Source of the DNA: Candidatus Nealsonbacteria bacterium
GTDB taxonomy: Bacteria > Patescibacteriota > Minisyncoccia > Minisyncoccales > RBG-13-36-15
Length of the DNA stretch: 64,000 nt
Assembly: GCA_011050465.1 (NCBI GenBank)
Contig: DRFQ01000009.1
Coordinates: 128,334 to 192,333, forward strand
Reading direction: 5' to 3'
The notes below the pieces were generated by a model. That model searched no databases. It saw only the letters and a program-made list of their open reading frames with translations, and was not told the origin of the DNA. Positions 7,872 through 45,375 of this stretch are shown in pieces (the stretch's first letter is position 1; the number at the start of each line of letters is the position of its first letter). Position numbers and translations under genes: made by a program.

Positions 7872-8119
7872 ATCGCAATAGATTAACCGGCATTATTAGA
7901 GGAGTTTTTTAAGCCCGTATAATAATGTCGCTTTACCTACATTGTGCGACTATCTCTACCTCTATAATAAACGGGGCAAAAGGCCTTGTCAAGTGCTCCC
8001 CTATAGGTTTATATATAAAGTATTTTAGAAACAAAAAGTCAGCTTAATAAGCTGACCTTGATCCTCCTCTTTTCTTTACGACGTCGAGATATATTTGACA
8101 TTGTTTTTGGGTCCAATCG

Positions 8120-8431
8120 CTAGCGAGAAAAAAAGAAGATGCGCCAGATACAGTCTTCAATTGTAACAAGAAATTCATTTTCACGAGGATAGTCTTTCTT
8201 GAATAAACGCTTTACTCGAATATAATGAACCTCTGTTATTTCATCGTTTCTGAAATGACCCTTTTTTTTGGAATTGATTACTCTTCGTGCTTTTCTTAAT
8301 GCCTTTGCCTTACTGTTTGGAGCCTGGAATTTGCAGTAAATAACTAGTATGGTAGAGATTCGAACTCGACCGTCAGTATATGGCTGGACATAAACGCCAT
8401 TACAAAGAACTTCTGCCTGCCACCATCTCAT
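8120..8431 (-). CDS. hypothetical protein (103 aa), cassette gene
   Basis: AAAGGAGGCAAAG SD; own promoter at 8494-8522; terminator hairpin GTCAGCTTATTAAGCTGAC at about 8038-8056. Confidence 0.5.
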   Translation of the reverse strand: MRWWQAEVLCNGVYVQPYTDGRVRISTILVIYCKFQAPNSKAKALRKARRVINSKKKGHFRNDEITEVHYIRVKRLFKKDYPRENEFLVTIEDCIWRIFFFSR

Positions 8432-8493
8432 GGACTTTGCCTCCTTTTGGGACAGCTTTATTCAATTTTTTAGGTACGGTCCTCCTTTTTGTT

Positions 8494-8522
8494 AAACTAC
8501 CCTTTTATAAGAAAGAAATCAA
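8494..8522 (-). promoter_or_regulatory. promoter (CCTCGGGCTTGA family)
   Basis: Minus strand reads CCTCGGGCTTGATT-N17-TAGTTT. Confidence 0.4.
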
Positions 8523-8588
8523 GCCCGAGGTAATATGTTCTTTAAAAACAAAAAGGCGGTGCGTAGCACCGCTTTGAAAATTGCCTCC

Positions 8589-9056
8589 TTATCCGATTAG
8601 TACTCCTATGTTTTCAAGAGATTGGATAGCTGCCAGGAAAACTTCATACGGCATATAGCTCATAGATGGTGAAAGTATTCTGACCTCGTTGTCTTGAAGT
8701 TCAATGCCAATGAAGTATAGTTCTTGGTCTGGTATTAATACATCTTCGGTCTCTTTTTCTATGCCACTGAATTTATAAAGTATTCGTCCATAATAGGAGA
8801 ATCCATTTCGGGGTACTGTAATCTTTGGCAGGAGTTGATGCCTACCTATAACATCCTTAACCGCAGCCATGTCGGTCGGGTTATCTGTTTTTGGCAGAAG
8901 AATATACAGAATTCCTTTTTCCAATGAATCGACTGGACCCCTTGCGAATGTTTCATCGTATGATATCCTCGCGTCCGAAAGCCCTCTATAATAGAGAACC
9001 CAACCTTTTCCAGTAATAGCCTGGAAGATTTCTTGGGCTTGTTGGTCCATAGCCAA
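8589..9056 (-). CDS. hypothetical protein (155 aa), cassette gene
   Basis: GGAGGTATTGG SD; own promoter at 9112-9139. Confidence 0.55.
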   Translation of the reverse strand: MAMDQQAQEIFQAITGKGWVLYYRGLSDARISYDETFARGPVDSLEKGILYILLPKTDNPTDMAAVKDVIGRHQLLPKITVPRNGFSYYGRILYKFSGIEKETEDVLIPDQELYFIGIELQDNEVRILSPSMSYMPYEVFLAAIQSLENIGVLIG

Positions 9057-9111
9057 TACCTCCTTTTCCAGCTCTAATCTTTCTTTTGAAGGAACTATTC
9101 ATCCTAAAAAT

Positions 9112-9139
9112 AGTCTAATGCTTTCAAATAATAAGTCAA
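9112..9139 (-). promoter_or_regulatory. promoter (CCTCGGRCTTGACTTAT...TAGACTATT family)
   Basis: Minus strand reads CCTCGGACTTGACT-N16-TAGACT. Confidence 0.6.
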
Positions 9140-9224
9140 GTCCGAGGCATCATTTGGAAACAAAAAGGCCCGCTTTTCGGCAGGCATCTAATGATATTCC
9201 TTCATAAAAGAGCAAGCTAATAAA

Positions 9225-9527
9225 TTAATCAAACGACGCAGACGGTCCTCTTTCTGAGTTTATAACAAACTGTACCATGGCTTGAAGGTGGCGAAAGTTA
9301 GTTCTATCATAAACTCCAATGCCAATAGGTCGACCACCAGACCACCAAAATACTTGGTGTCTTCCAATGCCATTAGTCGAACCCTTATATGTCCATGTTC
9401 CCCTTCTTGTATTAATTTCTACTTCCTCTGGCGCCCTTTTTTGTAAACTAATGAAACTATGGTTATTTGGAACAGGCGCAAGAAAAACTAAGTTCCTTCT
9501 CTTGTACTTCACTCTGGGAGTCGACAT
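9225..9527 (-). CDS. hypothetical protein (100 aa), cassette gene
   Basis: AAGGAGGGGAAGG SD; promoter at 9564-9591; terminator at 9160-9190. Confidence 0.5.
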   Translation of the reverse strand: MSTPRVKYKRRNLVFLAPVPNNHSFISLQKRAPEEVEINTRRGTWTYKGSTNGIGRHQVFWWSGGRPIGIGVYDRTNFRHLQAMVQFVINSERGPSASFD

Positions 9528-9563
9528 CCTTCCCCTCCTTGTCTTGGTAATGCTGCTAAGAAT

Positions 9564-9591
9564 AGTCTACAAAATATTCGATATAAGTCAA
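9564..9591 (-). promoter_or_regulatory. promoter (same family as 9112-9139)
   Basis: Minus strand reads CCTCGGGCTTGACT-N16-TAGACT. Confidence 0.6.
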
Positions 9592-9609
9592 GCCCGAGGC
9601 AACCACAAA

Positions 9610-9800
9610 ACAAAAAGCCGAGGACACAATTTGGATTGGATTAACCAGAACTCGGGTTGTCCCCAGCCTTGGAGAATGGCATCGTACTTCGTGGGTTTAC
9701 CACCAGTAAGCTTTACCCCCTCCTTGATGGATGGGGTTGGTTGGCCAGGGTTGACGCGAGGGTTCGGCTCTAATCTTACTGACTTCCCAACCTCATCCGT
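9610..9800 (-). ncRNA. candidate about 190-nt structured transcript (motif X, copy 1)
   Basis: Consensus promoter at 9806-9834 and a hairpin plus T-run at about 9610-9660. No plausible start codon. The 5' end is homologous to the leader at 43876-44023. Confidence 0.35.
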
Positions 9801-9805
9801 CTTCA

Positions 9806-9834
9806 ATTTTAATTTAAACTTAATTTTTTGTCAA
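9806..9834 (-). promoter_or_regulatory. consensus promoter of the motif-X transcript
   Basis: Minus strand reads TTGACA-N17-TAAAAT. Confidence 0.6.
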
Positions 9835-10034
9835 TAAAAAAAATGTTTGGAAAAAATAAAAATTGTTCAGCGATAATTTCTTTTAAAGTTAATAAACAAA
9901 CTATTAGTCCCCTACCCTGTCTCGCCTTGGTTTTGGAACAATTTTCCAATAATTAAACCAATAAGACTATAGTTTTTTCCGCTAACTCTTTAGTCTTACC
10001 TGTCAAAAAAATAGGTACTTTAAAAGAGGTTTAT

Positions 10035-31883: not shown

Positions 31884-31897
31884 AAATTTGAGTTATT

Positions 31898-34616: not shown

Positions 34617-34688
34617 AAAACCGTCCTAATGAGTGACCTCTACTCTGTTCAATTTTCTGTAATTTAATTTTCTTCATTTTCCATAATT

Positions 34689-35777
34689 TTATTTTCCAGA
34701 TTTAGTTCGATTGTCTTGTTTACACAACATCTGGCAATTCTCTGAAATAGTTTTTCCACCTTCATGCCAAGGCTTTATGTGGTCAGCTTCCATTTCTTCT
34801 ATTTCGAAATACTTCTTGCATTTTGTGCAGACACCTTTTTGTCTCTCATACGCCTCTCGTTTCATTTTGTCAGTAAACGCGCGTATTGAGAGATATTTTT
34901 CTTGTCTAGTCAATACATAAGGGTAAATGCCTGGTTTTTTCGTTACGTCTTCATCTTGCATTAATTCAGCAATCTCGGTTTCTAGTTTATCGACACTTAG
35001 TTTTTTGTCTTTGAATTGATTGTATGGTTCACCCCATTGCACGCTCTTCATCTCTCTGCGATAATTCGTGAAAGTCTTCCTCACCCACGCTATTACATTT
35101 TGGAAATAGTCCCACAGCTCGTCGGCATTCATGTATTGTTGGTGTTTGGCCATGTAATCTTCAATTTTTCCATAGTTGATCCACGAAAGAACAGTTTCCA
35201 AATATTCTTGTCGGATTGGTTTACCGCTGACTAATTGCCCACCGTCATTTGCCAGCAGATACGCAGCGCAGTTTGTTTTGCTAAATTTTAATTTAGCGTC
35301 GGAGAGCCATGGTCCAGTGTAAACTGCATTCCTCAGTTCTTGGTCGGTCAGTTTTTCACCGGCGATATTGATAATTCTAAACCAATCAAGGCGTTCTTTG
35401 TCTGTGCCCTCGCAGATGTAAATCATGAGCTTATAATCCAAAATCTGTTTTTTTTCTTCGCCAGTTAAGTTGTGGAAATAGAGATTATCCAGTGAAAAAT
35501 CTCCGTTCACATATTGCCCAATGCTAATGGTGCGCTGTTGACCATCAAGCATCTCAAAACAATTTTTGTTTTTCAACCAATACATTACATTGAGTGGAAA
35601 ATTCTTGCGTATGGATTCGATAACTTCTTTGCGTTGTTTATCGTTATAGATAAATTCACGTTGATATTTTGGGCGAATATCGAGTTTATCACCATAAGCC
35701 ACAACACCTTCTTCGGCACTGTCTTTGTAGTCCTCGATCACTTCGCGTATTGAAATTTGGTGTAGTTTAATTTTCAT
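34689..35777 (-). CDS. DUF262 (GmrSD N-terminal, ParB-like) domain fused to an HNH endonuclease
   Basis: IRPKYQREF and LDGQQRT (DUF262). C-terminal CTKCKK...ADHIKPWHEGGKT...NCQMLCKQDNRTK (HNH). Confidence 0.85.
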   Translation of the reverse strand: MKIKLHQISIREVIEDYKDSAEEGVVAYGDKLDIRPKYQREFIYNDKQRKEVIESIRKNFPLNVMYWLKNKNCFEMLDGQQRTISIGQYVNGDFSLDNLYFHNLTGEEKKQILDYKLMIYICEGTDKERLDWFRIINIAGEKLTDQELRNAVYTGPWLSDAKLKFSKTNCAAYLLANDGGQLVSGKPIRQEYLETVLSWINYGKIEDYMAKHQQYMNADELWDYFQNVIAWVRKTFTNYRREMKSVQWGEPYNQFKDKKLSVDKLETEIAELMQDEDVTKKPGIYPYVLTRQEKYLSIRAFTDKMKREAYERQKGVCTKCKKYFEIEEMEADHIKPWHEGGKTISENCQMLCKQDNRTKSGK

Positions 35778-35786
35778 ACTAATTCT

Positions 35787-36830
35787 TTATTTTTTATTTT
35801 TAATTAAAATGCGCGCGTAGATTTCTTTGCCGTCTATCGTAAACCTTTTTCCGTAATTTGGATTGTCTTCGACATACCTGTCTATGCCGATAATCTCAAA
35901 CTGCTTGGGATTATATTTATCAACAAATGTAATTGGAACACCCATTACACCTTTGTAGTCCATTGGAATATCAACATACCGATTTATATTGATAGCATCA
36001 TAGTCGTCATACTTGGGATATTCTTCTGAGCTGTACTTTTTATACAAAGTAAGTTCTTCGTGACGTTTTGTTGTATCAAGATTTGTAAACCACGCGATAT
36101 TGCCCATGCTAAAATATTTCACACCATCTTCAATTTTTATTCTCGACTCAGTTTGTATGTCATAGTTCTCGGGAACTTGAAACCACTTTGTGCCGCCATT
36201 GTCATATCCAAGCCATAACCTATTTTCTTTAATTAGTTTGAAAATTTCTTTGTACGTAATGGCGTTTTGATTACCAAGGATCAAAAACTTTCTGTTGTAT
36301 TCCATAAGTTGCTCAACGTATTCACGAAATAGTGAAAACGGGGGGTTTGTTACCACTATATCAGCTCGTTTGAGCAGTTCTGTGCACTCATCGCTTCGAA
36401 AATCACCTTCTCTATTTAAGGGGGTTGCGGTGTTTTTGTCGTGCTTTAGTAAATACTTTACATCGTCGAGGTTTACCGCACCATCGCCGTCGATATCCGA
36501 CACTTCTTTGATTTCGATTTTGAACGGCTCCTTGCCCGTCGGCTTTAGTCCTTCCACCTCAAACAGTGGCAATTGCCCGCCGGCAATCGGCGATTTAACA
36601 TAACTCGTAGTGATGAGTTTTGTTAACCCCAGCGCGTTGAAATTAGCAGCAAAATACTTAAAGAAGTTGCTCTCGAACGGATCATCGCAGTTACAGTACA
36701 CAACTTTACCACGGAATTGGTCCTTGTAGTGCTTCGCCTCTTTTTCAATATCAGAAAGCTGCGTATAAAACTCGTCTTTCTTTGCTTTGTTTGCTCTAAG
36801 GAAAGATGTATTTAAAGATTTAGTTTTCAT
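35787..36830 (-). CDS. EcoRI-methylase-like N6-adenine DNA methyltransferase
   Basis: DEFYTQLSDIEKE...YCNCDDPFESNFFKYF and DIVVTNPPFSLFREY. Confidence 0.8.
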   Translation of the reverse strand: MKTKSLNTSFLRANKAKKDEFYTQLSDIEKEAKHYKDQFRGKVVYCNCDDPFESNFFKYFAANFNALGLTKLITTSYVKSPIAGGQLPLFEVEGLKPTGKEPFKIEIKEVSDIDGDGAVNLDDVKYLLKHDKNTATPLNREGDFRSDECTELLKRADIVVTNPPFSLFREYVEQLMEYNRKFLILGNQNAITYKEIFKLIKENRLWLGYDNGGTKWFQVPENYDIQTESRIKIEDGVKYFSMGNIAWFTNLDTTKRHEELTLYKKYSSEEYPKYDDYDAININRYVDIPMDYKGVMGVPITFVDKYNPKQFEIIGIDRYVEDNPNYGKRFTIDGKEIYARILIKNKK

Positions 36831-36905
36831 AAGGTTATTTTAATTAATCTACCTTAATTTTGCCACTTTTGGATTATTTTGTCTATTTATCAAAGATCTA
36901 AATAC

Positions 36906-36935
36906 TCGACATTTGTCGACATTTGTCGACATTTT
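36906..36935. repeat. three 10-bp-phased TGTCGACA palindromes (iteron/operator-like)
   Basis: TCGACATTTGTCGACATTTGTCGACATTTT, 76-105 bp upstream of the methylase ATG. Confidence 0.8.
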
Positions 36936-36939
36936 CTTG

Positions 36940-36953
36940 AAATGTCGCACAAG
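36940..36953 (-). repeat. right copy of the 14-bp inverted repeat
   Basis: Plus strand reads AAATGTCGCACAAG, the reverse complement of 25499-25512. Confidence 0.85.
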
Positions 36954-36994
36954 ATGCGTTATGCGACGCACATCATGATTATACGTATCAGGGA

Positions 36995-37027
36995 AACAAA
37001 AAAGGCCTCTGGCTGGTGCCTGAGGCT
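36995..37027 (-). terminator. T1-family terminator (cassette a)
   Basis: Minus strand reads GCCTCAGGCACCAGCCAGAGGCC plus a T-run. The 30 nt at 36999-37028 are identical to 37464-37493. Confidence 0.8.
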
Positions 37028-37040
37028 AAGGAATTCTTGA

Positions 37041-37388
37041 TTAGAGGGCTGCGAAAAGTTCTTTTAGTGCAGGAAGCTCCTCTTTGCAAATAGTAAGGTG
37101 TCGAGATGGCCATCCGCCAAAACTCATTTTTGATTTATTCCCTATCAATAGTCTGTAATAGTATTCTTCTTCTACTAATCGTGCTACCCTTGGTGCTTTT
37201 TCTGTTGCTATGGAGCCTCTAAGCCGAACTTCTCCTACGATTCTTGTTTTATTTCCCCTTTCCTTTTCCATTTTTGGGTCTACTCTACGAATAGTCTCAA
37301 CGAAAGCTGAAATCGAGTGTGTTCCGCTTCTTCTTCTGGCAGAACGACGAGCACTTAGAACTATTGCACTTGTTGTTCTTTTTGCCAT
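37041..37388 (-). CDS. hypothetical protein (115 aa), cassette a
   Basis: Track ORF trimmed: the -10 box sits at 37432-37437, and GGAGGTGAAAACAATG gives MAKRTTSAIV... Confidence 0.55.
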   Translation of the reverse strand: MAKRTTSAIVLSARRSARRRSGTHSISAFVETIRRVDPKMEKERGNKTRIVGEVRLRGSIATEKAPRVARLVEEEYYYRLLIGNKSKMSFGGWPSRHLTICKEELPALKELFAAL

Positions 37389-37431
37389 TGTTTTCACCTC
37401 CACAGGTTGTATAAGAGCTATTTGATACTTC

Positions 37432-37460
37432 ACCCTATTACATCCTTAGTTTTTTGTCAA
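37432..37460 (-). promoter_or_regulatory. P1-family promoter (cassette a)
   Basis: Minus strand reads TTGACAAAAAACTAAGGATGTAATAGGGT. Confidence 0.65.
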
Positions 37461-37462
37461 AA

Positions 37463-37491
37463 CAAAAAGGCCTCTGGCTGGTGCCTGAGGC
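37463..37491 (-). terminator. T1-family terminator (cassette b)
   Basis: Identical hairpin to cassette a. Its T-run runs straight into the -35 of promoter a. Confidence 0.8.
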
Positions 37492-37534
37492 TATGGAAAG
37501 AACAAAAAAACCTTGTATTGTATGTGAAGGTTCT

Positions 37535-37777
37535 TTAATACCCCGTCGTAAAAATTGTAATCGTTATAAAAAACGATAATAATACATATAGTAAAATGAA
37601 GGTTCTCTTGCCTTCTTGCAACCAAAAGGTGAACGAGGCTATCCACATACTAACTGCCATAATAAAATGCAAGAAAATGGAACCAAAAAAGATATTTAAC
37701 ATACTCATAACAACCACAAAAAAAATAATTCTTAGGGCGATACTTCTCTTCTCTATACTTTGATCCATTGTCCTCAT
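37535..37777 (-). CDS. small membrane protein (80 aa, 3 TM), cassette b
   Basis: Hydrophobic throughout; own promoter and terminator. Confidence 0.55.
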   Translation of the reverse strand: MRTMDQSIEKRSIALRIIFFVVVMSMLNIFFGSIFLHFIMAVSMWIASFTFWLQEGKRTFILLYVLLSFFITITIFTTGY

Positions 37778-37813
37778 TTCCTAGTTTGGAACGAACTAAC
37801 GAAGAACTGCTTA

Positions 37814-37842
37814 ACTCTATTACAACCTTAGTTATTTGTCAA
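37814..37842 (-). promoter_or_regulatory. P1-family promoter (cassette b)
   Basis: Minus strand reads TTGACAAATAACTAAGGTTGTAATAGAGT. Confidence 0.65.
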
Positions 37843-37843
37843 A

Positions 37844-37867
37844 CCCTTCGATAAACTCAGGGTAAAC
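37844..37867. repeat. GC-rich mini-repeat copy (inverted orientation)
   Basis: CCCTTCGATAAACTCAGGGTAAAC, wedged between terminator c and promoter b. Confidence 0.6.
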
Positions 37868-37900
37868 AAAAAGGCCTCGATGCTCTGCTGAGCCGAGGCT
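37866..37900 (-). terminator. terminator (cassette c)
   Basis: Minus strand reads GCCTCGGCTCAGCAGAGCATCGAGGCC plus TTTTTGTTT. Confidence 0.7.
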
Positions 37901-37917
37901 TGTACAGAATATGTCTC

Positions 37918-38235
37918 TTAGTTCAAAAGTTTTTGAAGATCTTCTCCTTGTAGAACTTGCCGTTGACCTTCTGTTGGCTCAAAAGTTAGCTGTTCTGAAA
38001 CCCAGATAAATAGGGATCCTCTTTGAAGAAATCTTTCTCTTTGAAGAAAAATAAATCTTCCCTTTGGAGTTACGATCGAGACCTCACGGTTACAAAGATC
38101 GCTTGGTATTCCAAAGGGATCGCCGAACGTTACAACTTGAAGATCAGAAAGACTCAAAGCAATATTGTTGGTTGCTGCCAGTTTTTCTGCGGCTTTCATC
38201 TCTTCTGAAATTTCGGTTAGGTCGATTCTGTCCAC
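37918..38235 (-). CDS. hypothetical protein (105 aa), cassette c
   Basis: GTG start 6 nt after AAGGAGG. Confidence 0.55.
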   Translation of the reverse strand: MDRIDLTEISEEMKAAEKLAATNNIALSLSDLQVVTFGDPFGIPSDLCNREVSIVTPKGRFIFLQRERFLQRGSLFIWVSEQLTFEPTEGQRQVLQGEDLQKLLN

Positions 38236-38282
38236 GTTTCCCCTCCTTATTTAGGAATGAATGAACTAATTAACGATTTTTA

Positions 38283-38311
38283 ATTATATTACATCCTTAG
38301 TTATTTGTCAA
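38283..38311 (-). promoter_or_regulatory. P1-family promoter (cassette c)
   Basis: Minus strand reads TTGACAAATAACTAAGGATGTAATATAAT. Confidence 0.7.
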
Positions 38312-38451
38312 CTCAAAATAGCCCTATTTTTGGAAAAAATCAAATTCCTTCCCCACCCCGCCTATCGATATCTGTCTACCGACAAATCCACAAAAAATAC
38401 CATAGCGGGAACAAGCTAAAAAATTATTAGGGCTTTAACGACGTGCAACCG

Positions 38452-38480
38452 TTGACAAATCACTAAAAATATAATATGGT
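38452..38480 (+). promoter_or_regulatory. P1-family promoter (cassette d)
   Basis: TTGACAAATCACTAAAAATATAATATGGT. The 5'UTR (CTTATACAACGGAGGTAAAAACAATG) is homologous to that of cassette a. Confidence 0.65.
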
Positions 38481-38522
38481 TAGATATCAATAGATAGCCC
38501 TTATACAACGGAGGTAAAAACA

Positions 38523-38717
38523 ATGAAAGGAAGCGAAGTAGTAGGAAAGTGCCCACACTGTGGAGGAGACATTATTGACCGAAAAAAGCTCGTGGGTATA
38601 GTTGCCATTTTGATGCAAAGTCCGACACCAGAACTGGCTGTTGAAAAAATAACAGAGAATGAAAAGCCATATTTCTGCGGCGATTGTAGTGAGGAATTCG
38701 ACACTGTTCCGTCGTAA
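38523..38717 (+). CDS. zinc-ribbon protein (64 aa), cassette d
   Basis: CPHCGG...CGDC. Confidence 0.6.
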   Translation: MKGSEVVGKCPHCGGDIIDRKKLVGIVAILMQSPTPELAVEKITENEKPYFCGDCSEEFDTVPS

Positions 38718-38742
38718 CCGATTAGAGAGCTTTCGTTCATAT

Positions 38743-38776
38743 CCTCAGGCGCAAGCCAGAGGCCTTTTTTGTTTTT
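38743..38776 (+). terminator. T1-family terminator (cassette d)
   Basis: CCTCAGGCGCAAGCCAGAGGCC plus TTTTTTGTTTTT. Confidence 0.8.
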
Positions 38777-38847
38777 CTCTTGATCCCCTACCACTTTTTA
38801 TCTTTTATGTTTACATTCTATCTCAAACCTAAAAAAGTGGTGGGGGG

Positions 38848-38875
38848 TTGACTAAAGCTGTAGAAGAATTATCAT
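38848..38875 (+). promoter_or_regulatory. promoter of structured element copy 1
   Basis: GGTGGGGGGTTGACT-N16-TATCAT, about 85% identical to 44487-44520 on the minus strand. Confidence 0.6.
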
Positions 38876-38881
38876 TAACTC

Positions 38882-39079
38882 AGGAGAGAGGAGGTGGTCG
38901 CTTTTACCTTCGCGAACAACCCAGGCTGGGGCGGCCTGGGACGAATGACCTCCCTCTGGTCATTGGTCACTTTCTCTCTCCTATCAACTCTTTACAGTTC
39001 TTTCTACGACAAGCTCTTTGGGACGTATGTCCCACATCGCAGGGCCACCACCAACAACAACATCGGTGGCCTTTTTTTT
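38882..39079 (+). ncRNA. structured non-coding element, copy 1 (about 200 nt)
   Basis: 15-bp closing helix GGAGAGAGGAGGTGG / CCACTTTCTCTCTCC. Inner hairpins CCCAGGC/GCCTGGG and AATGACC/GGTCATT. 3' hairpin TGGGAC-GTAT-GTCCCA, then terminator GGCCACC...GGTGGCC plus T8. Confidence 0.5.
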
Positions 39080-39106
39080 GACAAATCATTAAGGATGTAA
39101 TATGGT
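39078..39106 (+). promoter_or_regulatory. P1-family promoter
   Basis: TTGACAAATCATTAAGGATGTAATATGGT; its -35 overlaps the preceding T-run. Confidence 0.65.
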
Positions 39107-39151
39107 TAAGTAGCAATAAACAGCACATTCCCAAGAAGAAGGGAATCAAAG

Positions 39152-39550
39152 ATGGCTCAAAGCCCATCGGAAATAGAAAAGAAAACCCGCCTTAAAGAAT
39201 TATGGATGTTACTATTTGGTAACCCAATCAATCTAACTGACCCCGAGATTGAAAGATTACTTGAGTCTGAAAAAGAACTTAGAACAATTTTGCATTTTAC
39301 CTACAGTGGATTTCCCCATCAGATAGAAAGAGTAAAAAAACATCATGCCAAAAAGAAAGAGCTATCTGAACTGCCTACAGAGAAGTTGGTGGAAATGAAA
39401 TGTGCGATAGAAGAAAATAGACTGGCTGTTCTTAGGTCAACCAACGAGGAAGAACTTTCAGATTCATTCTTTGAGGCTCCTCCCATTGACTCCAATGAAC
39501 ACATCCTGAATGAGATTCTAAAAGAACGGGGTGTTGACTGGCGAAAATAG
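39152..39550 (+). CDS. hypothetical protein (132 aa), cassette e
   Basis: Own P1 promoter and terminator. Confidence 0.55.
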   Translation: MAQSPSEIEKKTRLKELWMLLFGNPINLTDPEIERLLESEKELRTILHFTYSGFPHQIERVKKHHAKKKELSELPTEKLVEMKCAIEENRLAVLRSTNEEELSDSFFEAPPIDSNEHILNEILKERGVDWRK

Positions 39551-39588
39551 AAAGATTCTTAAACAGGCAATCCCGATTCGATATATAA

Positions 39589-39622
39589 GCCTCTGGCTCA
39601 CGCTAAGAGGCCTTTTTGTTTT
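39589..39622 (+). terminator. T1-like terminator (cassette e)
   Basis: GCCTCTGGCTCACGCTAAGAGGCC plus TTTTTGTTTT. Confidence 0.75.
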
Positions 39623-39720
39623 CCGGCTTGCCTCGGGCTTGAATTCTTTTATTTAACATGATAGGCTAAAAATCCAAACATAGCACCTTTACAGCTTAGA
39701 CCGAAAAGGGGGTAAGAAAA

Positions 39721-40293
39721 GTGAAATACCTCTTGTTGCTTTATCTAATCCAGCCCTACATAGATGTTTTCATTGGCGAAGAACCGCCCGACGTAAAGAA
39801 AAAATTTGCTGCCCTCTATAAAAAGATTGTGCGAGAAAGATATCCAGGGTTCCAAGTAGTTTGTGTATTTTTTTCTAAACCAAGCGAAAAAAAAGAACCT
39901 GACCTTTCTCAGAAGTGGGATATTTTTTCACTTGAAGAAAGCTATACTATAGAGGCCTGTGGAGTAACATTCGCTGATCATTGTGATAATCAAACATATC
40001 CCAAAGAAAACGACATTCTTGAATTATGTCCTGGCCCAATTGATGAATTGATTGTTAGCGGATTCCATTTTTCTGATTGCGTAGAAAAAATTGCCAAGTT
40101 TGCCCACAAGCAAGGCATTCAAGTTTTTGTAGATGAAGATCTAACAGAATTATTCTTTTATGGAATAAAAATGGGAGTTCCAATTTCTCGTGAAGCAAGC
40201 ATAAGAAGAACAAAAAAGTTGTTCAGAGAAAGTTTGCTTCTGGATTTTGTGCGCGAAAACCGTAAAGGGAGACCATGGCTGGTCCAGCTTTAA
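39721..40293 (+). CDS. hypothetical protein (190 aa), weak isochorismatase/cysteine-hydrolase-like C-terminal pattern
   Basis: GTG start after AAGGGGG. LIVSGFHFSDCVEKIAKFAHKQGIQVFVDEDL resembles the isochorismatase-fold core. Promoter CCTCGGGCTTGAAT at about 39633-39670. Confidence 0.5.
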   Translation: MKYLLLLYLIQPYIDVFIGEEPPDVKKKFAALYKKIVRERYPGFQVVCVFFSKPSEKKEPDLSQKWDIFSLEESYTIEACGVTFADHCDNQTYPKENDILELCPGPIDELIVSGFHFSDCVEKIAKFAHKQGIQVFVDEDLTELFFYGIKMGVPISREASIRRTKKLFRESLLLDFVRENRKGRPWLVQL

Positions 40294-40493
40294 GCTGAGT
40301 CACCAATACGACTTGGCTTTTTTTGTTCTTAATGACCAATAGTAGCTCGCCGTTTGTAACCTAAGAAGCCATGGATAATGGTCTGCTAATCTCTCGACTC
40401 CGCTCAGGGTGGTAAGCCTATCGAACCATTGGCTTAAGTTTGAGATGGAGGCAAGGATTTAATGCCCGAGAGTTGTTGCCCCTCGTGAAAAAC

Positions 40494-40522
40494 TTGACAA
40501 ATTCAAAGTATGGGAGTATAAT
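40494..40522 (+). promoter_or_regulatory. consensus promoter of structured element copy 2
   Basis: TTGACA-N17-TATAAT. Confidence 0.65.
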
Positions 40523-40528
40523 GCTATT

Positions 40529-40797
40529 ATTGACTGATATTCGTTCTTTTTGAAAAAATGTTGTCAGCTATTCAGCAAATTGTTCATCTGAAAAGGTGGT
40601 CAGCTTGCTGGACAGATGAAAGGAGACGTTCGCCAATAGCCCAAGATGGTGGAGCTGTCGCAGGCGCCGGCCAGCTTGGGCGCACTAGATCAACCAGATC
40701 ATCCGCGCGTATACCTGCCATCTGTTCGGCACAGCACTTTTCGAGGACTTATGTCCTCACCTATAGGGTCACCCATAACAACAACGGTGGCCCTTTT
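40529..40797 (+). ncRNA. candidate non-coding transcript sharing the 3' module of copy 1
   Basis: GAGGAC-TTAT-GTCCTC hairpin plus GGGTCACC..AACAACAAC..GGTGGCCC terminator. There are two compensatory changes relative to 39019-39071. Confidence 0.35.
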
Positions 40798-40829
40798 ACT
40801 TTCTACCTATCTTTTAGATGGGTTTTTGT

Positions 40830-40858
40830 TTGACAAATAACTAGAAATGTAATAATAT
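40830..40858 (+). promoter_or_regulatory. P1-family promoter
   Basis: TTGACAAATAACTAGAAATGTAATAATAT. Confidence 0.6.
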
Positions 40859-40903
40859 CGAATTAAATAGTACATTTGTCGCCATAACGACAAGGAGGTA
40901 GTA

Positions 40904-41083
40904 ATGGCGAACGAGATTTTATTATGCGGCGGCGCAGTTTTACAAGGCGTCGAGAGAGCGGTTGATGAGGGGGGTGAGGATCTTGTTGTCACCCTAGAAA
41001 ATGTAGGGACAGTTCTTGTTCCTAAAGGGAATATAGCAAAGATTGACATACTAATAGAAACCGAAGAAGAACCCGACGAATAA
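40904..41083 (+). CDS. hypothetical acidic protein (59 aa, below the track cutoff), cassette f
   Basis: AAGGAGGTAGTAATG. MANEILLCGGAVLQGVERAVDEGGEDLVVTLENVGTVLVPKGNIAKIDILIETEEEPDE. Terminator at 41124-41151. Confidence 0.55.
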   Translation: MANEILLCGGAVLQGVERAVDEGGEDLVVTLENVGTVLVPKGNIAKIDILIETEEEPDE

Positions 41084-41123
41084 ATAATTTCTAGTTCTTT
41101 ACTTACTATTCAATCCTTCTTCA

Positions 41124-41151
41124 AGGTCTCGCTCAGAGACCTTTTTGTTTT
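41124..41151 (+). terminator. intrinsic terminator (cassette f)
   Basis: AGGTCTC-GCTCA-GAGACCT plus TTTTGTTTT. Confidence 0.75.
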
Positions 41152-41171
41152 CAAAAGGAGTTATTGGGCTT

Positions 41172-41246
41172 GCCCTCCCAAATTCGCCGCAGAGGCGAAC
41201 TTAGGCGGGCTTGACTTATTTATTGAGGTTGTTATGATATAAAATC
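41172..41246 (+). repeat. 75-bp inverted repeat, left arm (hairpin plus promoter)
   Basis: GCCCTCCCAAATTCGCCGCAGAGGCGAACTTAGGCGGGCTTGACTTATTTATTGAGGTTGTTATGATATAAAATC. 74/75 identical to the reverse complement of 45285-45359. Confidence 0.9.
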
Positions 41247-41283
41247 GTAGAGGAAGGACAGCACTTTCAAGGAGGTTAAAAAG

Positions 41284-41568
41284 GTGGCAGAGACAACCGA
41301 AAACAAACGGCAAAGTGGACAAGTCAAAGATGGAAAATGGTTGGTGCTAACCGAGAGTACTAGAAAGCCAGACAAGTGCTATACACATACCTGTGGCACA
41401 GAAATTTTAGGCGAAAAAATAGCTCATCCTGTTTGGGATGGTCCGACTCCACTTTCTGGACACGGTCAGTGCGAATATGAAATGGTTCCTTATTGTCCAA
41501 AATGCGAAAATAAACCAAACCCTCAAGGGGTGCCGATAACTCCCAAGGGTAGCCATCGTAATCTTTGA
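41284..41568 (+). CDS. zinc-ribbon protein, paralog of 2054..2371
   Basis: GTG start 8 nt after AAGGAGG; shared C..CG..IL...VPYCP.CE..P pattern. Confidence 0.6.
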   Translation: MAETTENKRQSGQVKDGKWLVLTESTRKPDKCYTHTCGTEILGEKIAHPVWDGPTPLSGHGQCEYEMVPYCPKCENKPNPQGVPITPKGSHRNL

Positions 41569-41752
41569 CCTAATTACTTTATAGGTTCTTGGTAGAAGTT
41601 CTTTTAATTAATCCGATATAAACCGCAATCCGGCTCAAGGTCCTCCCGACACTCGTCAGGAGGCTTTTTTATTTCCCCGATACGCTCACAGGACAGAAAC
41701 TAAAAAAAACGGCACGAAATTATCGTACCGACCAAAACAGCAACACGTATTT

Positions 41753-42724
41753 TTAATGTACCTGCTTTTGCCTGATTATTTCCCGCAATACTCCCTCAAC
41801 TAATTTCAGGCTTTTTTCGTCTATTATAGAGACAGCCAGCACTTCTTTTCCTGTTTTTTTGAGGAGGGCCATTTTCTTTTTAATGTCTTTTTCGGGCAGT
41901 AAGTCGGTTTTGGTCAGAAAAACGTATTCCGGCTTTAATAAAAGCTCCTTATTGTAAACCTCAAGTTCATTCCTGATGGTTTTGTAGTCTGCCAAAGGAT
42001 CTTGGGATTCAGACGAAATAAAATGGAAAAGGATTTTTGTTCTTTCAATGTGCCGAAGGAATTTAATGCCTAAACCCTTGCCTAAAGAAGCTCCCTCAAT
42101 AAGGCCCGGGACGTCAGCCAAAACGAGCCCGTAATAAACTCCCAAGTTGGGATTCAGGGTCGTAAAAAGATAATTAGCCACTTTACTTTTAGCCTTGGTC
42201 AGCTCGTTTAATAAACTGGATTTACCGACATTCGGCAAGCCGACAAACCCAACATCAGCTATCATCTTCAATTCCAATCTCAATTCGTATTCCTGCCCCA
42301 AAGAACCTTCTTCAAATTCCCTGGGAGTCGTATTAATAGATGATCTAAATTTAAAGTTGCCCCGCCCTCCTTTGCCGCCTTCAGCCATCAATGAACGCTG
42401 CCCTACAAAAACAATTTCTGAATCCTGTTTCAAGAACAAATTATGAATGACCGTACCCACGGGTACCTTTAAGAAAAGGTCTTTACCGTCTGCGCCGTCG
42501 TTGAATCCCTTTTTGCCGTTTTCCCCATTTTCAGCTGACAGTTCTTTTTTGTAGCGAAATTGATTCAAAACACTTAGATCAGAAACCCCTTCAAGATAAA
42601 CACTGCCTCCCCGACCGCCGTCCCCACCGGTAGGCCCGAGAGTCATTTTAACCTTACTGAAAGCCACGGCCCCCCTGCCGCCGTCACCAGCTTTCACCCT
42701 AATTTTGACGTCGTCAATCAGCAT
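41753..42724 (-). CDS. obg: GTPase Obg
   Basis: Gly-rich Obg fold (GGDGGRGG, GGKGGRGN) and GLPNVGKSS G1 motif. Confidence 0.93.
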   Translation of the reverse strand: MLIDDVKIRVKAGDGGRGAVAFSKVKMTLGPTGGDGGRGGSVYLEGVSDLSVLNQFRYKKELSAENGENGKKGFNDGADGKDLFLKVPVGTVIHNLFLKQDSEIVFVGQRSLMAEGGKGGRGNFKFRSSINTTPREFEEGSLGQEYELRLELKMIADVGFVGLPNVGKSSLLNELTKAKSKVANYLFTTLNPNLGVYYGLVLADVPGLIEGASLGKGLGIKFLRHIERTKILFHFISSESQDPLADYKTIRNELEVYNKELLLKPEYVFLTKTDLLPEKDIKKKMALLKKTGKEVLAVSIIDEKSLKLVEGVLREIIRQKQVH

Positions 42725-42898
42725 ATTATTTAATTATTTTGCGCGTGGACTATAAAGCAACCTTATAATATCATATAATCCATAGATGCTAGAAGCCCAT
42801 ACATCTGGCATAGATTGTACGCTTTTTCATATAGCCTTATCCTGGATTTTTACTTGCTTTTTTATATATTTTTCCTATAATTAAAACGGAAGACAAAA

Positions 42899-43117
42899 AT
42901 GACAATAGAAACTATTTTTGATATTATAGGTTCCATCTCTTTCTTGATTATCGCAATATTTATCTGTGTCACATTTTACTATTTAATTAAAATCCTTAGA
43001 GATATTTCAAAAATAACCTACCGATTTCGCGAAAAAAGTGAGCAATTTGCAGGTTTAATTACAGCTCTAATAGCAATGCTTAAAAAGACAATAATCGGCA
43101 GAAAAAAAAGAAAATAA
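42899..43117 (+). CDS. small membrane protein (72 aa)
   Basis: One TM helix followed by an amphipathic helix. Confidence 0.5.
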   Translation: MTIETIFDIIGSISFLIIAIFICVTFYYLIKILRDISKITYRFREKSEQFAGLITALIAMLKKTIIGRKKRK

Positions 43118-43137
43118 TAAATATAAATATTAACAAT

Positions 43138-43470
43138 ATGACAGTCCAAAAAACCACAAAAAAAGGAACAGGCAAAAAAATATTGGCAGCCGCGATTTTG
43201 GGTGTGCTTGCCGGAATGCTGTTAGCTCCCAAGGCTGGCAAAAAACTAAGGAAGGATCTGAAAAATATTGCCCAAAAGATGGAGAAGGAGATAATTCGAC
43301 AGGCCGGAAGAACCAAGAAGCTAACTCAAGGAAAATATGAAGATATTGTGGAAACGATGGTCAATTCTTATACCAAGGCGAAAAAGATTAAAAAAGAGGA
43401 TGTGAAAGCGATAACCAGGAACCTCAAAAAAATCTGGATTGACTTGGTAAAGAAGATAAAATCGAGATAA
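43138..43470 (+). CDS. YtxH-like protein
   Basis: ILGVLAGMLLAPKAGKKLRKDLK. Confidence 0.7.
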   Translation: MTVQKTTKKGTGKKILAAAILGVLAGMLLAPKAGKKLRKDLKNIAQKMEKEIIRQAGRTKKLTQGKYEDIVETMVNSYTKAKKIKKEDVKAITRNLKKIWIDLVKKIKSR

Positions 43471-43510
43471 GCTTCGTGCAATTAATGGTTGATTTTTTAC
43501 CCCAGCGTGC

Positions 43511-43538
43511 GTCACGCTGGGTTTTTTCTTGCTCTTCT
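43511..43538 (+). terminator. intrinsic terminator
   Basis: CCCAGCGTG-CGT-CACGCTGGG plus TTTTTTC. Confidence 0.8.
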
Positions 43539-43632
43539 CCTATTTTTAGAAAAAGACGAATTTGTTCAATGGGACAAAAAAAAGCTCGCCGGAATGGCGA
43601 GTTTTAAAACGCAAAATTAACTAAGGTACTAT

Positions 43633-44023: not shown

Positions 44024-44029
44024 GCATTC

Positions 44030-44135: not shown

Positions 44136-44171
44136 CAAAAATAGTAAGAGCTCATCTTATGATGAGCTCTT
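44136..44171 (-). terminator. intrinsic terminator
   Basis: AAGAGCTCATC-ATAA-GATGAGCTCTT plus ACTATTTTT on the minus strand. Confidence 0.8.
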
Positions 44172-44307
44172 GAGCAATGTGCCCTTGTGCGTCTTCCGGC
44201 TGTTCTCCAACCGGAGCTTCTGCATAAAGAGTTGCAAGCAAAGGAAGGTGAAGAAGACATGGATCCTTCCTAATCAGTTCTATGATTTTCTTGAAAACAT
44301 TTATCAA
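44152..44307 (-). CDS. possible 51-aa protein downstream of structured element copy 3
   Basis: TTG start 9 nt after AGGAGG. (M)INVFKKIIELIRKDPCLLHLPLLATLYAEAPVGEQPEDAQGHIAQELIIR. The stop lies inside the terminator stem. Confidence 0.3.
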   Translation of the reverse strand: MINVFKKIIELIRKDPCLLHLPLLATLYAEAPVGEQPEDAQGHIAQELIIR

Positions 44308-44351
44308 TTCGGTTTACCTCCTTTCCTGCAATCATTCTTAAAAGAACTAGT

Positions 44352-44480
44352 AGGAGAGAGAAAGTGGCAGGGTTATGGGGGGAACACAGCAGGTCACGTG
44401 CGTTCCCGTGGCACCTTGGGTGAAGGTGATAGCTCTCTCTCCGCGTGAAGAGGGAGGTCAAGAACCACCTTCTCTCTCCC
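44352..44480 (-). ncRNA. structured non-coding element, copy 3 (acts as a 5' leader)
   Basis: 15-bp helix GGAGAGAGAAGGTGG / CCACTTTCTCTCTCC encloses a divergent 97-nt core with GGGAAC/GTTCCC and CACCTT/AAGGTG hairpins. Confidence 0.45.
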
Positions 44481-44486
44481 AAGTTA

Positions 44487-44514
44487 ATTATAGCTCTTCT
44501 ACATTTTTAGTCAA
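44487..44514 (-). promoter_or_regulatory. promoter of structured element copy 3
   Basis: Minus strand reads GGTGGGGTTGACT-N16-TATAAT. Confidence 0.65.
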
Positions 44515-44688
44515 CCCCACCACCAATCCTAGGTTAGTCTATTGAACTTACAACGACTTAAGCCGATAGGCGGCTTCGCCTTATGGCTTTTTTAAATTCA
44601 TCATGCCTTGGCTGGGACTGGTGGGGGGCCAAGAAACAAACAAAAAGGCCTCTTGGCATAAGCCAGAGGCTATAAAAAGATTGGTTTT

Positions 44689-45207
44689 TCAATGATTCAC
44701 CGCTCTTAACGTTTCCTCTTCTAATCTAGAGATAAGATCTTGATTAGCGTTAAAAAAGTAGCGATGTGTCCTTCCTTCTTTTTCTATGCGAATCAAATTT
44801 GCTCTCCGAAGATTACCCACCATTCCCCAAACAGACCTTCTGGTTAAGTATCTTGCTTCGGCAATATCTTTTATGGTACAGCCAGGGTTTTTTATAATAT
44901 AAAGCAGAGTGAAACCTTCTGTGGTGAAAAATTGGCGTTCGGGAGAATTATTGTCTGCATTTTGTATAATATCTAAAGGGTTACGGCTGGCAGAGTGATA
45001 GTGTTTTCTACCTATTTTTTCAAAAGATATATATTCCCCTTGAATTAAGAGACATGTATGGTCAAAAAATCCCCAGACAGTTCGTCTGGTCAAACCCAAG
45101 GCATCGCCAATCTGAGAAACTGTTGGTTCTTCTCCTTTTTGATTTTTTTGTCTAATAAAAAAGTAAACCGAACCAACGGTTGACAGAAGCCGAATATCTT
45201 CTCCCAT
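44689..45207 (-). CDS. tandem winged-helix (HTH) DNA-binding protein
   Basis: Two repeats: VSQIGDALGLTRRTVWGFF and IKDIAEARYLTRRSVWGMVGNL. Confidence 0.7.
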   Translation of the reverse strand: MGEDIRLLSTVGSVYFFIRQKNQKGEEPTVSQIGDALGLTRRTVWGFFDHTCLLIQGEYISFEKIGRKHYHSASRNPLDIIQNADNNSPERQFFTTEGFTLLYIIKNPGCTIKDIAEARYLTRRSVWGMVGNLRRANLIRIEKEGRTHRYFFNANQDLISRLEEETLRAVNH

Positions 45208-45284
45208 CGTTCTCTCCTTTCCTTGTTCGCCTTTTTCGCAGCTACTCTCTATTCAATTAGGAAGGTACAGACCCTCCTGCCTAT

Positions 45285-45359
45285 GATTTTATATCTTAAC
45301 AACCTCAATAAATAAGTCAAGCCCGCCTAAGTTCGCCTCTGCGGCGAATTTGGGAGGGC
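45285..45359 (-). repeat. 75-bp inverted repeat, right arm
   Basis: Reverse complement of 41172-41246 with one mismatch in the -10 box (TAAGAT versus TATGAT). Confidence 0.9.
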
Positions 45360-45375
45360 AAATTTAAGAAACCCT

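Follow-up and report, generated by a model that had tools for sequence, protein, structure and literature searches.

How does a bacterium with a reduced genome come to carry, side by side, a series of unrelated small genes framed by nearly the same promoter and nearly the same terminator? Patescibacteria (the candidate phyla radiation, CPR) are ultra-small symbionts with reduced genomes, and to our knowledge the acquisition and expression of strain-specific genes in them are poorly understood. The question is raised by a 64,000-nt stretch from Candidatus Nealsonbacteria bacterium (assembly GCA_011050465.1, contig DRFQ01000009.1, positions 128,334 to 192,333), referred to here in its full length as the window, in which cassettes a, b and c on the minus strand and d, e, a 190-aa gene and f on the plus strand lie between positions 36,995 and 41,151. 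An earlier description made from the letters alone, hereafter the sequence-only reading, took these for small-gene cassettes that reuse one set of promoters and terminators. The anatomy of these modules, their restriction to this region, their conservation around unrelated open reading frames (ORFs) and the differences in cassette content between close strains were established at the level of sequence. We infer that the cassettes are autonomous, each with promoter and terminator activity of its own, and consider it probable, at roughly 60%, that recombination shuffles them as expression cassettes within a hypervariable slot next to a defense island.

The promoter that recurs most often, termed A-type, is a 35-nt module resembling TTGACAAATAACTAAGGATGTAATAGGGTTAAGTA, with six copies within 37432-40858. 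Searching the window with the pattern TTGACAAATMACTAAGGATGTAATAT and allowing up to three mismatches returned five matches (37460-, 37842-, 38311-, 38452+ and 39078+), with zero expected in shuffled sequence. The sixth copy, at 40830+, is looser, and together these are the six copies in two divergent arms that the sequence-only reading had listed. The layout consists of a -35 box TTGACA, a 17-nt spacer, and a -10 box reading TAGGGT, TATGGT, TATAAT, TAGAGT or TAATAT; the register was fixed because the copy at 38283-38311 has a perfect TATAAT. The 190-aa gene, correctly singled out earlier as the exception, has a C-type promoter (CCTCGGGCTTGA), of which further copies are found at 41207+, 45324-, 8526-, 9140- and 9595-.

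These modules might have been nothing more than the consensus signals of the organism. Module counts covered about 84 kb of the genome, that is, the 64-kb window and 20 kb beyond its ends, the latter holding grpE-dnaK-dnaJ and the genes for L9, L27, pyrG and EF-P. Neither the A-type spacer nor the T1 hairpin described below was found in the remaining 60 kb of the window or in the 20 kb beyond it, core genes included, and the C-type box was absent outside the two arrays of the same approximately 80 kb except for two isolated 8-mers. Recognizable core promoters have only TTGACAAAT in common with the A module. Within the approximately 84 kb covered, A-type, C-type and T1 modules do not serve as general consensus signals of this organism.

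The terminators are similarly stereotyped. Terminator T1, GCCTCTGGCTGGTGCCTGAGGC, is present in identical copies at 37005 and 37470, behind cassettes a and b as had been noticed from the letters, and over 40 nt, flanks included, these agree at 93% of positions. Variants of the T1 hairpin also stand 3' of d (38740-38775), e (39588-39624) and a helix-turn-helix (HTH) gene (44641-44675), and genes c, f and the 190-aa gene end in non-T1 hairpins. The hairpins gave predicted folds of -13 to -15 kcal/mol and are followed by U-runs; at 37468-, 39070+ and 40823+ the T-runs adjoin the next -35 box, in agreement with the sequence-only reading. The tail CTTTTTGTTT is a general terminator style of the genome, which does not hold for the sequence of the T1 hairpin. 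In 23 of 23 T1-family hairpins the GC stem has a single unpaired A at its middle (for example 36999-37028, 37464-37493, 38743-38775, 39590-39622 and 44641-44669), and variants differ in whether it takes the form of an A.A mismatch, a 5' bulge or a 3' bulge.

It had further been proposed that terminator and promoter are fused into one mobile punctuation element. This idea was rejected, as across loci the A-type promoter is preceded by at least four hairpin types (T1, T2, T3 and T4), and the upstream hairpin thus varies for the same promoter. Because the same promoter follows four hairpin types, the moved unit is not a terminator-promoter fusion. The unit that is conserved, and that appears to move, is one gene with its own predicted promoter and terminator, from the -35 box to the T-tract.

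Translation signals also set the cassettes apart. Every A-type copy is followed by a leader of 28-45 nt with a GGAGG ribosome-binding site, as claimed earlier, then by an ORFan of 59-132 aa and by a hairpin with its T-run. Cassettes a and d have leader sequence in common, a similarity that proved real. A 5-mer Shine-Dalgarno (SD) sequence precedes 10/13 cassette-type genes versus 3/51 ORFs of at least 120 aa, bearing out the contrast with core genes drawn by the sequence-only reading, and an SD of at least four nucleotides was present at 13/13 cassette-type genes. The genes for dnaK, L9, L27, pyrG and EF-P and the Mur genes are without an SD. At many core genes a TAGAAT-like -10 box stands 6-10 nt ahead of the ATG, as in L27 with TTGACAAATTGCGGGATACTTGATAACATAGATG, which suggests that core-gene mRNAs are widely leaderless. 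In the window and in positions 1-10000 of L049 (contigs other than that of the window are designated here by L and a number), the GGAGG sites are borne by accessory and hypothetical genes.

The ORFs between the modules are indeed family-less, in that none of the seven (a-f and the 190-aa gene) matched a Pfam, PHROG or PADLOC family, and NCBIfam gave nothing on the function of the cassette ORFs. Among 5.8 billion proteins, a and e each fell into only 3 clusters; e is predicted to be an all-helical bundle, for which no match was found in the PDB. Protein c retrieved only itself and weak repeat matches among 1.84 billion representatives, and the latter, to repeats of giant Ig-like proteins, were too weak to be trusted and leave it with no credible relative. 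The 190-aa protein (9 clusters) has an invariant FHxxDC motif, and its model (predicted local distance difference test score, pLDDT, 89) bears a weak resemblance to a distant isochorismatase/cysteine-hydrolase-like fold. The G+C content at third codon positions (GC3) was 0.34 for cassettes versus 0.32 for core genes, and overall GC was 0.40 versus 0.37. A foreign origin by composition was rejected on the near-core GC3, and because of the same closeness we take the cassettes to circulate within the lineage.

Modules of the same kind were found in other genomes. The collections were scanned for exact matches to a degenerate pattern, and the metagenome collection was without this genome's own JGI contigs of 258 kb and 362 kb. 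For the 35-nt promoter, 2/9 GTDB matches (Ca. Nealsonbacteria RBG_13_36_15 and Patescibacteria Bin_194) and 16/24 metagenome matches are genuine loci. The other 7/9 and 8/24 were discarded as chance matches, in AT-rich Firmicutes and others, that are without the hairpin, the leader and the downstream conserved bases. Promoter and terminator modules flank about 21 more unrelated small ORFs on 18 contigs of other Nealsonbacteria and Patescibacteria. Without exception the genuine loci have a hairpin with TTTTTGT, TTGACAAATAACTAAGGATGTAATAGGGTTAAGTA, a leader with GGAGG and an ORF of 49-112 aa, and in most of them T1 follows in the form AGCCTCAGGC-loop-GCCAGAGGCC-TTTTTGTTT.

Across 28 unique A-type instances, conservation reaches about 2 bits per position through the spacer, equal to the invariance of the -35 box, and GGGTTAAGTA is conserved although it lies outside the search pattern. 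The modules are identical to the consensus in genomes whose core proteins are 67-87% identical to those of the window. Among 26 distinct ORFs, BLASTP found one related pair (36% identity); membrane proteins make up about 40% of the set, and zinc ribbons account for several more. As about 40% are membrane proteins, the content turns over at strain level and the array borders a defense island, the cassette proteins probably serve strain-specific accessory functions at the cell envelope or in phage or host conflict. Arrays of 2-3 A-type cassettes were found in L007, L020, L027 and L029. In L007 (Ca. Nealsonbacteria RBG_13_36_15), two A-type cassettes lie inside a direct repeat of about 30 nt (512-545 and 1296-1330, AACAGGYTYTAATYT.GTCCGCTAGACGACCCT; also L028 at 512, minus strand), which is what single-crossover integration of a circle would leave. 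In the relative L026 a 402-aa gene (526-1734, minus strand), which we take from its sequence to be an insertion sequence (IS)-type transposase, lies between a T1 terminator and an A-type promoter; other mobile elements therefore presumably land in these arrays as well.

If cassettes are the unit of change, they should differ between relatives as wholes. The slot that holds them lies between a conserved MraY-MurD-FtsW-MurG-GltX block on the right and a variable restriction-modification (RM) and defense island (about 25.5-36.8 kb) on the left, with obg (41753-42724) inside the small-gene region. The contents of this slot differ in the window, L027 and L058, in keeping with the moron-style accretion next to a defense island that had been suggested, and the region is not collinear among relatives. 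Strain L004 is 99.9% identical to the window over 39607-45325. In its divergent tract of about 0.7 kb (38929-39612), the place of e is taken by a 70-aa membrane ORF, unrelated to it, that has a T1-type hairpin of its own, and the tract also changes the interior of the non-coding unit R1 (a 25-nt insertion and a few substitutions), the promoter -10 box and the leader. An extra cassette of 496 nt (leader, 108-aa ORF and terminator) is present in L004 where the C-type promoter of the HTH gene has its -35 box, with CGGGCTTG on both sides of the insertion; it stands between genes that are adjacent in the window, and its flanks are 99.9% identical. The replacement looks like the import of one homologous tract of about 0.7 kb with its right end in the T-tract or the C promoter, and the insertion looks like recombination at the 8-nt -35 repeat. 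From these features, homologous and microhomology recombination are favored over a dedicated site-specific system.

Other relatives, among them the close strain L027, kept some cassettes and exchanged their neighbors. In L027 the 3' end of gene a is 98.8% identical and the product of gene 21822-22388 is 96% identical in amino acids; between the two lie a unit ending in T4, three different A-type cassettes and a nuclease gene, and a different RM system replaces the 22.4-36.9 kb part of the window behind the same ATGTCGACA-repeat boundary. Cassette a is kept in L047 from the -35 box to the T-tract at about 93% nucleotide identity (leader 100%, protein 91%), the gene differing by 11 synonymous and 9 non-synonymous codon changes, next to a different upstream neighbor that is a gene with a C-type promoter. 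The 190-aa cassette is likewise kept from -35 box to T-tract in L058/L059 (78% amino acid identity) and in L060, with different flanks each time. In L058 the Mur-GltX block is syntenic, and in the slot lie AIRS, thioredoxin, two RNA-like units and the 190-aa cassette, which runs opposite to the Mur block; immediately behind this cassette come the same RM-boundary sequence and a further, again different RM system. The homolog of window gene 11276-11644 in L023 is followed by a cassette that is missing at this place in the window. Contig ends coincide with modules or lie close to them in L005 (both ends), L035, L038, L047, L050 and at the start of L004, as is expected because the modules are multi-copy repeats.

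In the picture that we favor, a cassette would consist of a sigma-70-type promoter, a leader of 28-45 nt with a strong GGAGG, one small ORF or structured RNA, and an intrinsic terminator whose T-run adjoins the -35 box of the next cassette. The lineage would reuse a small set of parts, namely promoters A, B and C, terminators T1, T2 and T4 and a few leader types, across unrelated ORFs and species. Such parts would insulate each gene, making its expression independent of its neighbors and sparing them read-through, and would at the same time give all cassettes the same short homologies at both ends. Recombination between these end homologies and conserved neighbor units would replace, add, delete and invert cassettes. 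Between strains this would be RecA-type recombination, probably on DNA taken up from relatives, and between -35 boxes it would be mediated by microhomology.

Several observations weigh against this reading. The left end of the divergent tract in L004 lies inside R1, outside the promoter module, and the modules mark where the homology of alleles ends, which is not necessarily where crossovers occurred. Strain-level events seen within the species number only two, most public copies being one clone of identical arrangement, and between more distant genomes plain divergence would also end homology at functional elements. Mis-assembly of metagenomes at repeats is possible too, although the identical stretches at the L004 junctions are short. 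The invariance of the promoter across the collections is partly a matter of ascertainment, and diverged copies exist (L007:902, L029:482). Lastly, more distant relatives have homologs of e with promoters of their own that are not A-type, and because of this the A module is not tied to an ORF over long times.

The features of the array and its surroundings are collected in Table 1, which adds to the sequence-only reading the structured-RNA units R1 and R3 inside the plus arm, gene g and a second array.

Table 1 Predicted features of the cassette array and of related loci in the window, in order of position.
Feature	Position	Strand	Remarks
Second array	7900..9850	-	RNA-like unit and three C-type cassettes (100, 153 and 103 aa, ORFans), each with hairpin and CTTTTTGTTT
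Defense island	25561-36830		GajB-like UvrD helicase with Cas4-like nuclease; PD-Lambda-5 A+B; PDC-S11; PDC-M41 A/B
RM part of defense island	within 25561-36830		GmrSD/HNH-type type II restriction endonuclease with EcoRI-like methylase
T1 terminator of cassette a	36994..37033	-	AGCCTCAGGCACCAGCCAGAGGCC and T-run; RNA fold -13.9 kcal/mol, one unpaired A
ORF a	37041..37388	-	115 aa, Arg-rich N-terminus, ORFan
Pa, A-type promoter	37426..37460	-	-35 box 37455-37460, -10 box TAGGGT 37432-37437; 2 mismatches to 35-nt consensus
T1 terminator of cassette b	37459..37498	-	T-run reaches into Pa
ORF b	37535..37768	-	77 aa, hydrophobic, about 3 membrane segments
Pb, A-type promoter	37808..37842	-	Pattern match
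Terminator of cassette c	37866..37903	-	Other hairpin, GCCTCGGCTCAGCAGAGCATCGAGGCC, and T-run
ORF c	37918..38235	-	105 aa, GTG start after AGGAGG
Pc, A-type promoter	38277..38311	-	-10 box TATAAT
Pd, A-type promoter	38452..38486	+	Most diverged of the A-type copies
ORF d	38523..38717	+	64 aa, CxxC...CxxC zinc ribbon
T1-type terminator of d	38740..38778	+	T1 hairpin variant
R1, non-coding unit	38848..39077	+	B-type promoter 38848-38875, structured RNA, terminator hairpins; fold z = -6.7
Pe, A-type promoter	39078..39112	+	Pattern match
ORF e	39152..39550	+	132 aa, ORFan; unrelated 70-aa membrane ORF instead in strain L004
T1-variant terminator of e	39588..39624	+	GCCTCTGGCTCACGCTAAGAGGCC and T-run
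C-type promoter of 190-aa gene	39630..39667	+	GCCTCGGGCTTGAATTC...TAGGCT; kept with gene in L058, L060
190-aa gene	39721..40293	+	Possible distant isochorismatase/cysteine-hydrolase-like fold
Terminator of 190-aa gene	40292..40330	+	Conserved in L058, L060
R3, non-coding unit	40494..40830	+	Consensus promoter 40494-40522; G+C-rich RNA; double terminator T4 40765-40828; fold z = -5.5
Pf, A-type promoter	40830..40864	+	Looser match
ORF f	40904..41083	+	59 aa, acidic
Terminator of f	41123..41152	+	Hairpin not T1
81-nt repeat with C-type promoter of gene g	41170..41250	+	Inverted partner 45281-45361, 97.5% identity
ORF g	41284..41568	+	94 aa, Cys-rich, GTG start after AGGAGG; belongs to array
R2 unit	44146..44521	-	B-type promoter, structured leader paralogous to R1, 51-aa ORF 44152-44307, terminator
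Double winged-helix (MarR-like) HTH gene	44641..45207	-	172 aa; T1-type terminator 44641-44678
Inverted 81-nt C-type promoter copy	45281..45361	-	Before HTH gene; insertion site of the 496-nt cassette of L004

R1 (38848-39077, plus strand) and the leader part of R2 (44521-44310, minus strand; fold z = -4.1) are paralogous structured RNAs. They share the promoter GGGGTTGACTAAA..TGTAGAAGA..TAT.AT and a closing stem of 15-17 bp (GGAGAGAGRAGGTGG / CCACTTTCTCTCTCC) that encloses a junction of three hairpins; R2 forms the leader to the 51-aa ORF, and R1 finishes in terminators with no ORF. L047 has a related promoter with an upstream hairpin. R3 has a perfect consensus promoter followed by a predicted transcript of about 300 nt that folds strongly and has no SD-led ORF; its double terminator T4 (..CAACAACGGTGGCCCTTTTACTTTCTACCTATCTTTTAGATGGGTTTTTGTT) occurs at 6 other loci before different cassettes. 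No Rfam family was detected for the RNA-like units, either at gathering thresholds over the whole window or in E-value mode over 36.8-44.8 kb. The stretch 40330-40490, from the terminator of the 190-aa gene to the R3 promoter, has no ORF and is conserved in L020 and L035 (TTCTTAATRACCAWTAGTAG...TTAAGTTTGAGATRGAGG).

The 81-nt repeat reaches 45 nt upstream of the -35 box and is shared, at 97.5% identity, by two unrelated genes, g and the HTH gene. Its inverted copies bracket a 4.1-kb segment with obg, ytxH, R2 and the HTH gene and could mediate inversion of that segment, and the Logan contig L005 has both of its ends exactly in the two copies. The second array, whose RNA-like unit spans 9800-9612 (fold z = -2.7), ends beside a Xer-like tyrosine recombinase (6915-7871). 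A contig of strain BAEC19-1 (L050) breaks exactly at a promoter of that array, at window position 9148. Elsewhere in the same strain, 100 nt stand in place of 25 nt of the window at 1723-1749, in a region downstream of uppS that holds two small genes, with flanks of 99.7-100% identity. The RM boundary consists of TGATACGTATAATCATG..TCGCATAACGCATCTTGTGCGACATT and then tandem (A)ATGTCGACA repeats (window 36900-36995, L027 2700-2880, L058 10600-10790) and is found upstream of an RM system in each of three relatives, the three systems being different; it could be a place where RM modules land or a control region common to them.

The most serious of the other explanations is that the A module marks a regulon, an unknown DNA-binding protein or specialized sigma factor reading the spacer and the -10 box, with the strain differences being ordinary island turnover. 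The encoded double winged-helix protein would be a candidate for this factor, and the presence of a MarR-like gene in the same region fits. Invariance equal to that of the -35 box extends over the 17-nt spacer and the sequence just after the -10 box despite core-protein identities of 67-87%, which is unusual for sigma-70 promoters and typical of operator sites, and the weak -10 box TAGGGT would suit an activator-dependent promoter. That distant homologs of e carry other promoters is also consistent with a regulon. However, no dyad symmetry was read in the module, and a regulon leaves unexplained the equally stereotyped terminators with their one unpaired A, the leaders common to unrelated ORFs, the 81-nt repeat that extends 45 nt beyond the -35 box at 97.5% identity on two unrelated genes, and the gain and loss of whole cassettes between strains of 99.9% identity. 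Regulation of this kind is compatible with shuffling, and as such a serious partial rival but not an exclusive one; as the explanation of the locus we consider it unlikely.

Less probable again is a dedicated, promoter-bearing analogue of the integron, in which units from -35 box to T-tract, possibly as circles, would be recombined at a defined core by an unrecognized recombinase or Xer, with the spacer read by a dedicated factor. Were this true, it would mean SD-led high expression of strain-specific envelope or conflict proteins in a genome with leaderless core genes.

An integron-like or Xer-driven system in the stricter sense, with cassettes excised as circles and inserted at a defined core by an unidentified recombinase, appears improbable. 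Candidates for the core would be the TTTTTGT/TTGACA junction, the GGGCTTG box, or the T1 hairpin with an attC-like unpaired base. Two cassettes do have coinciding limits in three genomes, from -35 box to T-tract; CGGGCTTG repeats stand at both ends of the 496-nt insertion; 'GGCTTGCC' scars lie beside intact GGGCTTGA boxes (39624-39642 and 41173); and the two-cassette block of L007 lies within its direct repeat of about 30 nt. The unpaired A in all T1 variants recalls the extrahelical bases of attC, and a Xer-like tyrosine recombinase stands at the end of the C-type array. This recombinase, however, scores as a generic XerC/D (216 bits) and reached only 90 bits with the integron-integrase model TIGR02249 (cut-off 265), over the C-terminus only, and no recombinase is found beside the A-type array. 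The hairpins are 22-nt terminators with T-runs rather than attC sites of 57-141 nt, no GTTRRRY was present at the junctions read, and the cassettes have their own promoters and stand in two divergent arms. The replacement in L004, moreover, resembles a homologous import of 0.7 kb with diverged flanking RNA and not a precise swap.

That the array is the residue of tandem duplication of one ancestral unit, its variants being chimeric assemblies joined at repeats, is very improbable: many contigs do break at or near modules, where assemblers struggle, but the ORFs between modules are unrelated, which excludes duplication of whole units, the modules recur in independently assembled data sets of many studies and in two named metagenome-assembled genomes, the arrangement of the window is the same base for base in ENA, JGI, NCBI and Logan assemblies, and the left junction of L004 could share only about 13 nt with a consensus-type donor, a length below that of assembler k-mers.

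The array was also compared with known systems of gene turnover. The window is identical in sequence to contigs independently assembled by ENA, JGI, NCBI (GCA_011049515.1) and Logan from marine-sediment and other metagenomes. No phage genes were found in the window region, where essential genes are interspersed, and ARAGORN found no tRNA or tmRNA in the window able to mark an integration site. A blastn search against the INPHARED phages and PLSDB plasmids gave 0 matches, and a scan of IMG/VR was without the terminator pattern; the sole IMG/VR match to the promoter (L040) is a chance AT-rich match without GGGTTAAGTA. Phage or plasmid origin is thus unsupported by these searches.

The closest analogue of the array is found in the promoter-early stem-loop (PeSL) motifs of T4-type phages. 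These composite promoter/stem-loop motifs precede ORFans in hyperplastic regions, drive indels and replacements among close relatives and give rise to mini-circles (Arbiol et al. 2010, PMC2839356; Comeau et al. 2014, PMC4122927). Both pair a sigma-70-like promoter with a stem-loop and have an SD and a start codon at the 3' end, which takes the form here of a hairpin and T-run directly before TTGACA-N17-TAnnnT and then a GGAGG leader. Both lie in hyperplastic regions upstream of small ORFans, with six A-type copies here in 3.4 kb and none in about 80 kb flanking, and the insertions, deletions and replacements between close relatives that involve the motifs in PeSLs may do so here as well: whole cassettes are replaced and inserted in L004 and others stand in L027, but the left end of the L004 tract lies outside the promoter module. 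Unlike PeSLs, the cassettes here are part of a cellular Patescibacteria chromosome with obg, Mur genes and gltX, with no phage, plasmid or viral match. Further differences are that the promoter here is conserved through the whole spacer into the leader, that the terminator is part of the gene before it and can stand with any promoter type, and that RNA-only cassettes occur; promoter and terminator here are predicted from sequence.

Juhala et al. reportedly described morons in phages and prophages in 2000. Morons are units with their own promoter and terminator (PMC3594210, 'The moron comes of age'). Like them, the cassettes are, as judged from their sequence, independent transcription units added between genes, as seen with the 496-nt cassette that L004 has between genes adjacent in its relative, and both would spread by horizontal transfer and often carry accessory functions. 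In contrast to morons, the cassettes lie outside any prophage, stand in arrays of a dozen or so with the same regulatory parts, and have native composition (GC3 0.34 versus 0.32 in core genes), whereas morons usually differ from their surroundings. Because the locus lies on a cellular chromosome and has no phage link, we do not count it as a member of the PeSL or moron family.

Integrons have an IntI tyrosine recombinase and attC sites, which are imperfect inverted repeats of 57-141 nt with a GTTRRRY core, and their cassettes are mostly promoterless, co-oriented and expressed from Pc. The present array resembles integrons, including the sedentary chromosomal ones, in its many small unrelated genes, mostly ORFans, with repeated hairpin sequences between them and strain-variable content. 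It differs in having no IntI (the only recombinase, at 6915-7871, scores as a generic XerC/D, and none is beside the A-type array), no attC architecture (the ends are 22-nt GC hairpins with a U-run), and its own promoters in divergent arms, with the one resolved replacement resembling homologous import. Given the integrase score and the absence of attC architecture, identity as an integron was rejected.

The rAID-1 clusters of Bacteroidales, which are recombinase-associated orphan-immunity arrays, have a 5' XerD-like recombinase and two or more co-directional, low-GC homologs of interbacterial-toxin immunity genes (Ross et al. 2019, 10.1101/471110). Like the present array they are chromosomal and consist of small, diverse genes separated by repetitive sequence, and in both the content varies between strains and suggests active acquisition. 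Here, in contrast, the main array is without an adjacent recombinase, the Xer-like gene of the second array comes last and not first, no immunity family was matched in Pfam or PADLOC, and GC is not low (0.40 versus 0.37 in core genes). Miniature inverted-repeat transposable elements (MITEs) such as the Correia elements of Neisseria are short and non-coding, with terminal inverted repeats and target-site duplication. The modules are like them in being short intergenic repeats that supply promoter or terminator activity (predicted here) and mark sites of rearrangement. They are unlike them in having no terminal inverted repeats or target duplications and in never occurring without a gene; the inverted repeats found here are oppositely oriented promoter modules, and promoter and terminator types assort independently. 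A literature search, which was not exhaustive, found no description of such cassettes in Patescibacteria.

Taken by analogy, the array would best be described as the PeSL/moron principle in a cellular form whose regulatory parts are unusually rigid, and it would extend that principle from phages to a cellular chromosome. It offers a concrete, sequence-defined candidate for a mechanism in which plug-in cassettes built from interchangeable parts turn over between strains that are 99.9% identical. The 35-nt promoter together with the 22-nt hairpin would provide a searchable signature for accessory small proteins in metagenomes, and the modules themselves are candidate expression parts for future genetics in uncultured lineages. 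The locus also points to two classes of translation signal within one genome, leaderless core genes and SD-led cassettes.

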